A program made the translations under genes and the position numbers. The notes under the pieces were generated by a model that saw only the letters and a program-made list of their open reading frames with translations, ran no database searches and was not told the origin of the DNA. This document shows positions 55,410-58,590 of a stretch of DNA of 59,463 nucleotides, piece by piece. The stretch comes from Escherichia phage Skure: the sequence record MK672798.1, one strand, 5' to 3'. Position 1 is the first letter of the stretch. Each line of letters opens with the position of its first letter.

Positions 55410-55802
55410 ATGTTATTAGTCGTCACCGGAGGGCGTAATTTTAAGCATGTGGAATATATTTATGCTCAACTGGATAAGTTGCATATGCAAAGAAGGATAA
55501 CCACACTTCGCCACGGTGACGCTGACGGTGTTGACCGCATTTGCGCACAGTGGGCAGAGCGCAACGGTATTAAGACAGAAGCGTTCCCTGCCCCGTGGGA
55601 CAATCTTTCCTTACCAAATACCAAGATACGGTATAACGCCAAGGGTGCTTATAATGCACAAGCTGGCGCTTACCGCAATCAATTGATGCTGGATACTGAT
55701 CCTAAACCAGATCACGCTATTGTATTTCCTGGCGGAGCTGGTACTATGGATATGTACAGACGGATTAAAGCATCCGGTATCCCTTACACATTAGCGGAGT
55801 AA
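55410..55802 (+). CDS. LOG/SLOG-like Rossmann-fold protein (putative nucleotide-binding or N-glycosidase-like)
   Basis: 130 aa; N-terminal LLVVTGGRNF and C-terminal VFPGGAGTMDM resemble the LOG family PGGxGTxxE motif. Confidence 0.35.
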   Translation: MLLVVTGGRNFKHVEYIYAQLDKLHMQRRITTLRHGDADGVDRICAQWAERNGIKTEAFPAPWDNLSLPNTKIRYNAKGAYNAQAGAYRNQLMLDTDPKPDHAIVFPGGAGTMDMYRRIKASGIPYTLAE

Positions 55803-55805
55803 ATA

Positions 55806-56276
55806 ATGGCTGACGTTAAAACTATTGTTGATGCAATGGACGAATCCAAAGACGACCAACTGAAGAAGTCGTTTGAAGTAAAACAGGTTACAGAGACTCA
55901 GTTGGTCTGTAATTTTGCGCGTTATTGTGGACTGGGGCGCGGGAAAGACTGGAACGGGCTTATTGTTATGCCCACATCACAAATCCTCGTTTACGTTCGC
56001 AATATTCTTGAGGATTTATTATATCTTCAGATTGATATCGGTGATGTAGAAATCAATATGACTGCGAGCTCTACCATTGTGGTTAAATGGCAGTCGGGCG
56101 AGACACTGCGTTTGGAAGCGTGCCATTGTGCTAAGAGCCTACACCACCTGCGCGGTTGTCATTACCAGTTCGTTGGGTTTGTACATCCGCAAGGGTTAAG
56201 CGAGCGTACGGCGCTGGTAGCGCGTTTGCTGCTGCGTCCTTATAATAACGAGCCGGAAGTTATATACGAGGCATAA
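55806..56276 (+). CDS. hypothetical protein
   Basis: 156 aa ORF. Confidence 0.45.
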   Translation: MADVKTIVDAMDESKDDQLKKSFEVKQVTETQLVCNFARYCGLGRGKDWNGLIVMPTSQILVYVRNILEDLLYLQIDIGDVEINMTASSTIVVKWQSGETLRLEACHCAKSLHHLRGCHYQFVGFVHPQGLSERTALVARLLLRPYNNEPEVIYEA

Positions 56277-56278
56277 AC

Positions 56279-56635
56279 ATGAGAAGCGGGCGATGTCGTT
56301 TTGTATTTTTTATTGGGCGTTACGCGATAAAAATACCTCGTCTAAATAGTTACGAAGGGTTCCTACAAGGCTTATTAAGTAATATTACAGAGCGGAAATG
56401 GCGTAATTATCCTGATAAACACTTGTGTCCTGTAGTGTATGCTAATTGTATTGGTTTAATTGTGATAATGCTAAGGGCGCAGGAAGTAACAGATTTTGAA
56501 AAGTTTAAAAAGGATTTGGATGTCATATGCAACGATGAAAAAGGGCTTGGCGAAGAGTTTTATCGCTGGGATGGTACAGCAAAAAACTTTGGATACCTTA
56601 ACGGTAAGTTAGTTAAAGTAGATTACGGTGATTAA
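56279..56635 (+). CDS. hypothetical protein
   Basis: 118 aa ORF. Confidence 0.4.
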   Translation: MRSGRCRFVFFIGRYAIKIPRLNSYEGFLQGLLSNITERKWRNYPDKHLCPVVYANCIGLIVIMLRAQEVTDFEKFKKDLDVICNDEKGLGEEFYRWDGTAKNFGYLNGKLVKVDYGD

Positions 56636-57064
56636 ATGACAAAAATACGATTTGTTAAACAGCCAACTTTAAATACATGCGTTTCTGCGTGTTTGGCAAT
56701 GATCCTTAATAAACCTGTTGAGAAGGTCATTGAGGAATTTCATAGTCGTTATTATAACAACTGGGAAATCACTATCAGCGAATATTTGACTAAAAACGGC
56801 GTCAAGCATCATTGTTCAGAAGGTGGTGGGCGTGAAGCTTTGCATATGGGAGGTCTGTTCCTGTGCACGGTGCCAAGTCTTAATATTCCGGGCGCATTGC
56901 ACCAGATTGTGATTGATATGACAGATCACAAGTTTATTGTGCATGATCCAATTAAAGGATGGGAAGGTAAAAAGTTCTATGTTGGTCCGGATCAAGATCC
57001 TGAAGAGCCTGGAGCTTTTATCATTCATACTTGGGTCAAAGACGTTGAAATCCTGCCTTATTAA
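56636..57064 (+). CDS. papain-fold cysteine peptidase-like protein (C39-like)
   Basis: 142 aa; QPTLNTCVSACLAMIL resembles the Q...C(G)xAxLxMI active-site region of C39 peptidases; later H in IVHDP. Confidence 0.4.
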   Translation: MTKIRFVKQPTLNTCVSACLAMILNKPVEKVIEEFHSRYYNNWEITISEYLTKNGVKHHCSEGGGREALHMGGLFLCTVPSLNIPGALHQIVIDMTDHKFIVHDPIKGWEGKKFYVGPDQDPEEPGAFIIHTWVKDVEILPY

Positions 57065-57126
57065 TTTTCTTGCTATCACATAACCATTCATTGTATTGTG
57101 TACCCATCGAATAAGAGGGGTACACA

Positions 57127-57312
57127 ATGACCAAACTATACGCCGGATTGTTTTTATTTGCGACGTTGATGTTCGCTGGGCTTTATACCTATACAGTAGT
57201 CGAACAACCTTCCACGGTTATCCGAATCTTTGCAAGTACAGGGCTTTGCATCTGTCTTATTCTATTTGTTTTATGCATTGTTATTATCCAAGACCAAAGG
57301 AAAGTTAAATGA
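57127..57312 (+). CDS. small membrane protein (two TM helices)
   Basis: 61 aa; AGAGGGG RBS. Confidence 0.35.
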   Translation: MTKLYAGLFLFATLMFAGLYTYTVVEQPSTVIRIFASTGLCICLILFVLCIVIIQDQRKVK

Positions 57313-57773
57313 CCACAATTGCGTTTGATGGAAAAGTATTAGCTGCGGACCGTGGCGTTATGCGCGGGGAAGCTGTGACTGCTTATAAGAAAGTTCATAG
57401 CGTGAATGGACATCGTGGACGGTTTTTACTGGGCTTGTGCGGTTTGACAGCATTTACCGATCAGGTGTTGCGTTATTTTAATAGCGCGGAACCTGTTAAG
57501 TTCCCTGATATTAAACTTTACAGCAAAGATGATGATTACGGGCAAACTTGCGGTCTTGCTATCACTCCGGAAGGTACTTGCCATTTTATTTATAATGATG
57601 GTACTTTGAGCGAGCCCATGCTGGATGGATGGGGATCTGAGGGTAGCGGTTGTGTGTTTGCCGCTGGTGCATTAGCCGCTGGTGCAAGCGCAAGCGAAGC
57701 TATTGAGCTGGCAATTAAACACACCACATGCGCATTCCTGGGAGTTGATACAATATCATTTGAGGGTTTTTAA
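57309..57773 (+). CDS. Ntn-hydrolase, HslV/proteasome beta subunit-like protein
   Basis: 154 aa; begins MTTIAFDGK (Thr right after Met as in HslV MTTIVSV); GSEGSG and AGALAAGASASEAIELAIK resemble HslV GSGG and C-terminal helix. Confidence 0.4.
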   Translation: MTTIAFDGKVLAADRGVMRGEAVTAYKKVHSVNGHRGRFLLGLCGLTAFTDQVLRYFNSAEPVKFPDIKLYSKDDDYGQTCGLAITPEGTCHFIYNDGTLSEPMLDGWGSEGSGCVFAAGALAAGASASEAIELAIKHTTCAFLGVDTISFEGF

Positions 57774-58034
57774 ATGACTACATTCAGTCACCTGATCCCA
57801 CCTGCTTATCATAGTAAGGTAGTTGACCACGGGACGCATGTTGTAATTGGTGGCGAAATCTTTATCACAGATAACGAGGAAATCGCCATTGCAATTATTG
57901 ACAGCACTCAGCATGACTTTATGGTTATCCTGCAACACGAACCAGATAACTTCACTTTTTACTCCAGCTACGGGGTCGATAAAGGTGGAAAAAGCCTTGT
58001 TAGCTGGTATATTAGCGAGTGGTTTGACGGGTAA
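57774..58034 (+). CDS. hypothetical protein
   Basis: 86 aa ORF. Confidence 0.4.
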   Translation: MTTFSHLIPPAYHSKVVDHGTHVVIGGEIFITDNEEIAIAIIDSTQHDFMVILQHEPDNFTFYSSYGVDKGGKSLVSWYISEWFDG

Positions 58035-58116: not shown

Positions 58117-58554
58117 ATGGCACTTCAACCTCGTGGTATTCGTAATAACAATCCAGGCAATATTCGCTGGGGTGATAATTGGCAGGGCTTAGTTCCTGCT
58201 GATAAGCGAACCGATAAATCTTTTGCTCAATTCACGCAACCGATTTACGGCATTCGTGCGCTAGCGAAAATCCTGACAAACTACACCAAACGTGAAGGCT
58301 TGCCCAATGTAGGTAAGAAAAACATCGACACTGTACGTGAAATTATCGCTCGCTGGGCACCGCCTAACGAAAACGATACGGAAGCGTATATTCGCTCTGT
58401 TGCTAAAGCAATTGGTGTTCAACCTAACGATCCAATTAATGTCTTCGACAAGGCAATTATGTCAGGATTGGTGAAAGCAATCATTCGTCATGAAAATGGC
58501 ATGATGCCCTATACCGACGACGTAATTAACCGCGCTATTGCAATGGTACTTTAA
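58117..58554 (+). CDS. putative endolysin
   Basis: Start at ATG 58117 (GGAGG RBS) rather than 57847; 146 aa soluble protein immediately upstream of holin and spanins; catalytic family not identified. Confidence 0.45.
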   Translation: MALQPRGIRNNNPGNIRWGDNWQGLVPADKRTDKSFAQFTQPIYGIRALAKILTNYTKREGLPNVGKKNIDTVREIIARWAPPNENDTEAYIRSVAKAIGVQPNDPINVFDKAIMSGLVKAIIRHENGMMPYTDDVINRAIAMVL

Positions 58555-58590
58555 CTGACGGGGCGTTAGCCCCTTTTGTTTGGAGGGAAC

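Follow-up and report, generated by a model that had tools for sequence, protein, structure and literature searches.

The genome of Escherichia phage Skure encodes, at 56636..57064 on the plus strand, a stand-alone protein of 142 amino acids (aa) that very probably is an active papain-fold cysteine peptidase of the C39 type, as judged from its conserved residues and its predicted structure. The window, by which the whole stretch of DNA analysed is meant, comprises 59,463 bp and is the complete genome of this phage, which belongs to the genus Seuratvirus within the subfamily Queuovirinae. As to the role of the protein, we give about an even chance to a small, soluble, cytoplasmic endopeptidase of the C39 superfamily with a Gly-Gly-type specificity that cuts a conserved host protein for the takeover of the cell. 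In such an enzyme Cys15 would be the nucleophile, His89 and Asp104, placed on adjacent beta-strands, would complete the triad, and Gln9 would form the oxyanion hole. The substrate would be a conserved host protein present in every infected cell, it would be cut at a small-residue (Gly-Gly-type) site as is done by the characterised C39 enzymes, and the cleavage would serve the host takeover during the replication phase. The assignment of the fold is in itself ordinary and not new, and the family has already been catalogued as PHROG 4049. New are the corrected catalytic tetrad, the size of the family and its phage-restricted spread, the finding that the place of the gene near the lysis cassette is incidental, its association with modules of replication and topoisomerase genes, and an explicit, testable link to toxins that cleave GyrB and ParE.

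The region is 96-98.6% identical to phages KS_A8, GottfriedDienst, CAjan, and Seurat, and each of the 33 related Seuratvirus-type records with coverage of most of the query has the peptidase gene. Its orthologue in CAjan is gp84, which is annotated as 'hypothetical protein'. The Skure protein matches PHROG 4049, a phage family of 'unknown function', over its full length (E 4.9e-57, residues 3-141 of 142 against profile positions 2-140 of 145). The open reading frame (ORF) is clearly a real gene under selection, far beyond a chance ORF. A Shine-Dalgarno-like GGTGA can be read from the sequence at 56627..56631 (plus strand), 5 nt 5' of the ATG, and the ATG abuts with zero gap the TAA (56633-56635) of the upstream ORF, a junction that suggests translational coupling. 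Scans for sigma-70 promoters and terminators around the gene gave nothing above the shuffled expectation. The protein consists of the catalytic domain alone, and neither a signal peptide nor a transmembrane segment is apparent when the sequence is read by eye.

Predicted catalytic residues and fold of the peptidase

The original prediction had pointed to this ORF and to the string QPTLNTCVSACLAMIL, which is present as residues 9-24 of the protein, and had seen in it the Gln of the oxyanion hole and the catalytic Cys of a C39-type peptidase. Both residues are supported by their conservation. In an alignment of 158 relatives of roughly 30-60% identity, from which all conservation counts given here were taken, Gln9 (codon 56660..56662; all codons are on the plus strand) and Cys15 (56678..56680) are invariant (158/158 each). 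Gln9, the predicted oxyanion-hole residue, is placed six residues before the nucleophile, as in C39 domains, and Cys15, the predicted nucleophile, sits at the N-terminus of a helix that comprises residues 15-24 in the model. The catalytic His, however, had been sought in 'FIVHDP', which corresponds to His103 (56942..56944), and this residue cannot be the catalytic one because its position is not conserved, being mostly Tyr (62), Leu (40), or Phe (29) in the 158 relatives and Tyr or Leu already in three of 13 close homologues. The invariant His (158/158) is His89 (56900..56902, in 'ALHQ'), the predicted catalytic base, which is found at the start of strand 88-94. Asp104 and Pro105 (56945..56950) of the same FIVHDP string are conserved in 157 of the 158 relatives each, and Asp104 is the predicted third residue of the triad.

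The family thus has Gln, Cys, His, and Asp in the order and with the spacings of C39 peptidases, namely Gln-x5-Cys, 74 residues from Cys to His, and 15 residues from His to Asp. In hidden Markov model and profile-profile alignments, Q9 and C15 fall on the Gln and Cys of the leader peptidase LahT150 (QMEALEC) and of the toxin Cpe1tox (KQLTLTGC), and H89 and D104-P105 fall on NHFVVL...INDPAKG and GHWVLV...IYDPYQG of these two proteins, respectively. For comparison, the catalytic residues of the toxin StbD-CT are Q177, C183, H258, and D275 (bioRxiv 10.64898/2026.05.07.723447). Cys19, Ala21, Met22, Val79, Ser81, Leu82, Asn83, and Tyr115 are conserved in at least 90% of the relatives, and the family has conserved motifs of its own, VPSLN before the His loop and DPxxGxxGKxYY. 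Cys19 (56690..56692), the second conserved Cys on the catalytic helix at position Cys+4, is kept in 145 of the 158 relatives and is possibly redox-sensitive. A CxxxC on this helix is common to Cpe1tox (CGAAC) and StbD-CT (C183/C187), whereas LahT150 has a Ser at the second position, which might be taken as a minor hint at an affinity to the toxins. Because none of the relatives has lost the catalytic residues, enzymatic activity seems to be under selection, and we infer that the Skure protein is active as well. By retaining these residues throughout, the phage family is unlike the inactive C39-like domains of HlyB-type exporters.

When compared alone to the Pfam family Peptidase_C39 (PF03412), the Skure protein matches with residues 4-26 only, reaching an E of 0.056 and 13.7 bits at a cut-off of 22. 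As a calibration, the crystallographically verified C39-like toxin Cpe1tox also stays below this cut-off (18 bits, E 0.0026). The motif alone is not significant, and the support is therefore provided by the predicted structure and by the profile of the family; by these two the C39-type match of the original prediction holds, whereas the motif from which it had been drawn is sub-threshold. Peptidase_C39 is matched by 39 of 135 relatives at E<=0.1, the best E being 2.4e-6. With hhalign, the family aligns to a Cpe1-like profile with a probability of 87.9% (score 38.7, E 3.3e-6) and to a LahT-like profile with a probability of 85.0% (score 38.3, E 6.3e-6), and both alignments pass through Q/C and H/DP. 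Searching the Protein Data Bank (PDB) by sequence with the Skure protein alone or with a 13-sequence profile gave nothing meaningful. With the 135-sequence profile Cpe1tox (9l5u) came out on top at E 0.26 and LahT150 had E 0.3; both matches are sub-significant, and their alignments are correct through the catalytic residues. The chain of 9l5u was assigned to Cpe1tox by matching residue numbers to the publication (PMC12136450). The only PDB sequence match for the cell-wall enzymes of the NlpC/P60 and CHAP type, 9euf (E 1.4), is spurious and falls outside the catalytic region. NCBIfam holds nothing for the Skure protein, and its C39_FapD was weakly matched by two relatives. Profiles of NlpC/P60 and CHAP, the families to which a cell-wall enzyme might have belonged, are listed neither for the protein (E up to 1) nor for the 13 homologues and the 135 relatives (E up to 0.1).

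An AlphaFold2 model on the 13-sequence alignment is confident, with a mean predicted local distance difference test score of 89.8 and a predicted template modelling score of 0.86. Here, C15 opens the first helix, H89 opens a central strand, and D104 follows the next strand, which is the papain/C39 arrangement. The three residues are predicted to be adjacent, as supported by their positions in the secondary structure and by the homology alignments. The solved structures nearest to the model are C39 domains, with match scores of 10.1 for PCAT1, 9.5 for the ComA peptidase domain, 9.4 for LahT150, and 9.3 for a Bacillus anthracis C39-like peptidase (3erv). The pseudomurein endoisopeptidase PeiR (9.1), Staphopain C (8.0), the C39 toxin StbD-CT (8.0, 22% identity), and the Josephin and UFSP deconjugases (about 7) score below these, and the HlyB-type C39-like domains 3zua and 3b79 rank lower in the same comparison. 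Foldseek is weakly concordant with these matches and finds, among viral predicted structures, uncharacterised phage homologues and one Bacillus phage 'Peptidase C39 domain-containing protein'. By the model and by the structure matches the protein has the papain-like cysteine peptidase fold (MEROPS clan CA, Pfam clan Peptidase_CA), as had originally been proposed, and not an unrelated one.

Distribution and genomic contexts of the family

A profile built from 13 homologues retrieved 853 relatives at E<=1e-3 from 1.84 billion representative proteins, 530 of these at E<=1e-10, and nearly all of them are stand-alone proteins of 135-160 aa. By tblastn the family is present in 196 phage records, which include phages of Vibrio (53), Escherichia (45), Salmonella (34), Pseudomonas (18), and others. 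Among the matches listed (60 of the 196 records) nearly all are annotated as hypothetical and one as 'papain-like cysteine protease'. The carriers include therapeutic-candidate coliphages, Salmonella Kuttervirus phages, Vibrio cholerae podophages, and Pseudomonas prophages. A scan of bacterial genomes with a strict motif found no family member, and a second scan, which included a GC-rich clade, found ten loci. All of these are Pseudomonas prophages, and the family is therefore phage- or prophage-borne. A family member in a chromosomal toxin locus did not turn up in the two scans, both of which used narrow motifs. The Pseudomonas prophage homologue matches PHROG 4049 with E 1.4e-44. The longer relatives contain no informative fusions and no toxin-delivery domains; one has a zinc ribbon and one a YunG-like domain, and the others have N-terminal extensions of no recognised family, which may be fusions introduced by gene calling. 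The YunG-like phage domain (E 3.5e-9) is at the C-terminus of a relative of 283 aa (P0081), and the N-terminal region of a metagenomic relative of 272 aa (P0100), in which there is no Pfam domain, resembles MazG-type pyrophosphatases by eye (EELGEV...EAADLL). These two architectures could be real fusions or merged gene calls.

To survey the genomic contexts, the ORFs from 51 loci carrying a homologue were clustered. Beyond the Queuovirinae no partner gene is conserved among these loci, and the neighbours found in Skure are common to the Queuovirinae only. In two subfamilies of the Ackermannviridae the gene is inserted between the genes of the T4 gp39-like (large) and gp52-like (medium) subunits of topoisomerase II (Shigella phage Ag3, L003 1559..5253; Salmonella phage Maynard, L052 1059..4745), and its start and stop abut or overlap those of the subunit genes. 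In Pseudomonas lambdoid prophages it is located between O-like/P-like replication genes and NinB/NinG, 3' of a CI-type repressor gene. Vibrio phage phiVC8 has it in the early region 5' of a helicase, in Halocynthia phage JM-2012 it adjoins a thymidylate kinase gene, and its neighbours in Erwinia phage Hena1 and Pseudomonas phage Pa BHU-17 are unannotated small genes. The peptidase gene is an autonomous unit that moves between unrelated phage lineages, and its informative contexts are modules of DNA replication, recombination, and topology, not lysis or virion modules. The position upstream of the lysis cassette, which the original prediction had emphasised, is real in Skure and the other Queuovirinae, but a functional link is not supported; this neighbourhood is incidental and specific to the subfamily.

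Candidate substrates of the peptidase

The original prediction had considered the processing of either a phage or a host protein. The evidence favours a host target, and we regard a host substrate as slightly more probable than a phage-encoded one. Because no phage-encoded partner is conserved across the lineages, a conserved host protein would be the most economical substrate. The preference for Gly-Gly sites would be that of the superfamily, to which the protein is assigned. By analogy, two toxins set a precedent, since in each of them a minimal C39 domain attacks a bacterial protein in the cytoplasm. Cpe1, a type VI secretion effector of E. coli, cuts the (L)HAGGK(F) motif of the ATP lid between G101 and G102 of GyrB and between G97 and G98 of ParE (PMC12136450), and StbD-CT, a contact-dependent inhibition toxin of Citrobacter rodentium, makes the same Gly-Gly cuts in GyrB and ParE (bioRxiv 10.64898/2026.05.07.723447). 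Cleavage of GyrB and ParE collapses supercoiling and chromosome segregation (PMC12136450; bioRxiv 10.64898/2026.05.07.723447).

The HAGGK loop in the ATP lid of GyrB and ParE might therefore be regarded as a target of the phage enzyme too, although we consider this rather unlikely. The peptidase would then be a host-shutoff protease that irreversibly inactivates gyrase and topoisomerase IV by a cut at the Gly-Gly of the ATP lid, a scenario that we put forward just as tentatively. In the Ackermannviridae the gene would be co-transcribed with the phage topoisomerase II. The large subunit of this enzyme reads PEMLFGSLYAGSNFNDED, with LYAGSNF where E. coli GyrB has LHAGGKF, and, having no Gly-Gly, it would escape the cleavage if the scenario were true. 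Cpe1tox as the top (non-significant) PDB match, the shared CxxxC, the siting in a topoisomerase II operon, and LYAGSNF are all consistent with a gyrase-type role. Small phage proteins that disable the host gyrase are already known, and Igy (LUZ24 gp9) and Gip (Corynebacterium prophage CGP3) provide a precedent that includes phages without a topoisomerase (PMC10886550). These are, however, not enzymes but non-homologous peptides of about 50 aa whose binding inhibits gyrase reversibly, so that the parallel is functional only and valid only if gyrase and topoisomerase IV are the targets. If they are, one and the same enzyme would have been put to use twice, once by the toxins and once by the phages.

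Several points weigh against these proposals. By the Pfam gathering score the Skure protein is not a formal member of PF03412, and a functional study of the PHROG 4049 family was not found in the literature. The profile comparison cannot separate a toxin-like from a leader-peptidase-like ancestry, the scores being equal, and it places the phage family at the same distance from toxins and leader peptidases. The Seuratviruses Skure and CAjan encode a polymerase, primase, helicase, and ligase but lack a topoisomerase, and they may need the host gyrase for replication. Since they lack their own topoisomerase, an early loss of gyrase could harm the phage unless the peptidase is expressed late. The synteny with topoisomerase genes is confined to one phage family and could go back to a single inherited insertion, and the missing Gly-Gly, which was read from two Ackermannviridae enzymes, may be a general trait of this enzyme class.

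Cpe1 (PDB 9l5u; PMC12136450) and StbD-CT (PDB 8ssm/8ssk; bioRxiv 10.64898/2026.05.07.723447) belong to a class of toxins that is defined by a C-terminal toxin domain fused to a delivery module (PAAR, VgrG, Rhs, or CdiA) and followed by a cognate immunity gene. In contrast, the Skure family lacks delivery domains of the PAAR, Rhs, or CdiA type as well as a YajC-entry domain, an immunity gene does not follow it, and at the 51 loci no downstream gene is conserved across the lineages. The Skure peptidase is therefore not a polymorphic toxin, as it has neither a delivery domain nor an immunity gene.

The peptidase could also act against host immunity, as an anti-defence protease or deconjugase that removes or destroys an immune component. 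It might, for example, clip a ubiquitin-like modifier with a C-terminal Gly-Gly off phage proteins (Bil-type/Cap2-type) or cut a defence effector. We think this unlikely.

It is less probable still that the enzyme, by a cut of the Gly-Gly type, matures or activates one of the phage's proteins, such as a factor that acts in replication or recombination or regulates lysis. Maturation is the task of the canonical C39 enzymes, StbD-CT also cuts itself behind a Gly-Gly (bioRxiv 10.64898/2026.05.07.723447), and coupling-type junctions connect the gene and its neighbours in several lineages. However, no neighbour is common across the lineages that could be the candidate for a common substrate. In addition, Skure has no credible ORF with a Gly-Gly-leader and no HAGGK-like motif, since among all its ORFs of at least 25 aa only two spurious antisense ORFs contain a Gly-Gly-leader peptide or a HAGGK-like site. 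The peptidase gene is also found outside the head and tail modules, and the module of scaffold and major head protein is normal and located elsewhere.

Papain-like folds also support deamidation, transglutamination, acyl transfer, and amide hydrolysis. The protein could accordingly be a non-proteolytic enzyme that carries out one of these reactions, including the hydrolysis of small-molecule amides, on a host target. Isolated weak Pfam matches among the relatives, to phytochelatin synthase (E 0.0073) and to the TGL protein-glutamine gamma-glutamyltransferase (E 0.036), would fit such an activity. These matches are, however, restricted to single members at marginal E, whereas Peptidase_C39 is matched by more than a quarter of the relatives searched, and the Gln-x5-Cys and the His/Asp-Pro spacing are those of C39 peptidases. 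A non-proteolytic role therefore seems quite improbable.

The suggestion of a cell-wall endopeptidase, which would enter the periplasm after holin action and cut peptidoglycan cross-links or the links between Lpp and peptidoglycan as a lysis accessory, has not stood up and is left with very little probability. The proximity to lysis genes is found only in the Queuovirinae and gives way to early, replication, or topoisomerase modules elsewhere. The lysis cassette of Skure is complete without the peptidase, comprising endolysin, holin, and spanin, and the apparent absence of export signals as well as of NlpC/P60 and CHAP matches in the Pfam scans also argues against such a role. The pseudomurein endoisopeptidases PeiW, PeiP, and PeiR of archaeal viruses and proviruses (MEROPS C71) act in lysis and carry cell-wall-binding repeats; such domains are missing from the Skure family, which is tied to a lysis module in one subfamily only.

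Finally, by structure as well as by profile the protein is best matched by leader peptidases such as ComA, LahT, PCAT1, and those of the CvaB type (PF03412), which are N-terminal domains of peptidase-containing ABC transporters (PCATs). The Skure protein is in contrast stand-alone, phage-encoded, and predicted to be cytoplasmic, and there is neither a transporter nor a double-glycine leader substrate nearby. An ABC transporter is not fused to it and is not present in the orthologous CAjan annotation, and the 51 related loci have neither an exporter nor a Gly-Gly-leader neighbour. Because both transporter and substrate gene are missing, the peptidase is not a PCAT/AMS-type leader peptidase, and a role in processing a secreted, phage- or host-encoded double-glycine peptide (bacteriocin, microcin, or signalling peptide), whose export would be of no obvious benefit to a lytic phage, is hardly to be expected.

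With the assignment of the fold, a 'hypothetical protein' of nearly 200 phages and hundreds of metagenomic clusters becomes a testable enzyme with named catalytic residues. Stand-alone cytoplasmic phage proteases have rarely been explained, and the identity of the substrate would reveal either a new counter-defence or a new mechanism of host takeover, in which gyrase and topoisomerase IV are possibly destroyed by proteolysis. If the protease arrests growth, it would also be of use as a tool or as a lead to antibacterial targets. The finding would be ordinary if the enzyme turned out to be a housekeeping maturation peptidase.

Neighbouring genes in Skure

All neighbouring features described here are on the plus strand. 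Upstream of the peptidase gene, a protein of 130 aa (55410..55802) belongs to the Pfam family YAcAr ('YspA, cpYpsA-related SLOG family', E 3.5e-18) and carries the annotation 'GTP-binding domain' elsewhere. The ligands of SLOG domains are derived from nucleotides, and this protein might be a sponge or a sensor for a signalling nucleotide. It is followed by an ORF of no assigned family (55806..56276) and by an ORF of 118 aa (56279..56635, PHROG 4301, 'unknown function') directly 5' of the peptidase gene. None of the related Seuratvirus records in the collection has the 118-aa ORF at this position. These records align to the Skure region in two pieces with 89-91% coverage, and in CAjan gp83 abuts gp84. 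Homologues with at most 53% identity are found in phages of Escherichia, Salmonella, Aeromonas, Shigella, Serratia, and other hosts, in records of about 50-349 kb. Judged from this distribution, the ORF seems to be a mobile accessory gene that was acquired recently. With its insertion the N-terminus of the peptidase was altered, which reads MTKIRFVKQ in Skure and MIKHVKQ otherwise.

Between the peptidase gene and the next ORF there is a perfect 12-bp inverted repeat, CATTGTGTACCC / GGGTACACAATG (57094..57129). As RNA it folds into a hairpin of -20.1 kcal/mol (z -3.5), and none of 200 shuffled sequences is as stable. Its loop region contains a Shine-Dalgarno-like AAGAGG and its stem the start codon (ATG) of the following ORF. 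The hairpin could serve to control translation or mark a site of processing. The following ORF (57127..57312) encodes 61 aa with two hydrophobic stretches, by eye a membrane protein.

The next gene (57309..57773) encodes an HslV-like peptidase of the N-terminal-nucleophile type, which matches PHROG 1040 'peptidase HslV family' with E 5.7e-32 and, weakly, the Pfam family Proteasome. The protein starts with MTTIAF, and a Thr would be N-terminal if the initiator Met is removed. An HslU-like partner is not annotated in the orthologous CAjan genome. The pair of C39-like and HslV-like genes is kept within the Queuovirinae (JenP2, Vid5, and the Seuratviruses) and not elsewhere, and a two-protease system was rejected as the pairing is lineage-specific.

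An ORF of no assigned family (57774..58034) precedes the endolysin, holin, and spanin genes, with the endolysin stop at 58554 and the holin start at 58576. Between these two genes, a GC-rich hairpin followed by a T-run, GGGGCGTTAGCCCC TTTTGTTT (58555..58573), resembles a terminator and could attenuate the transcription of holin and spanin relative to that of the endolysin.

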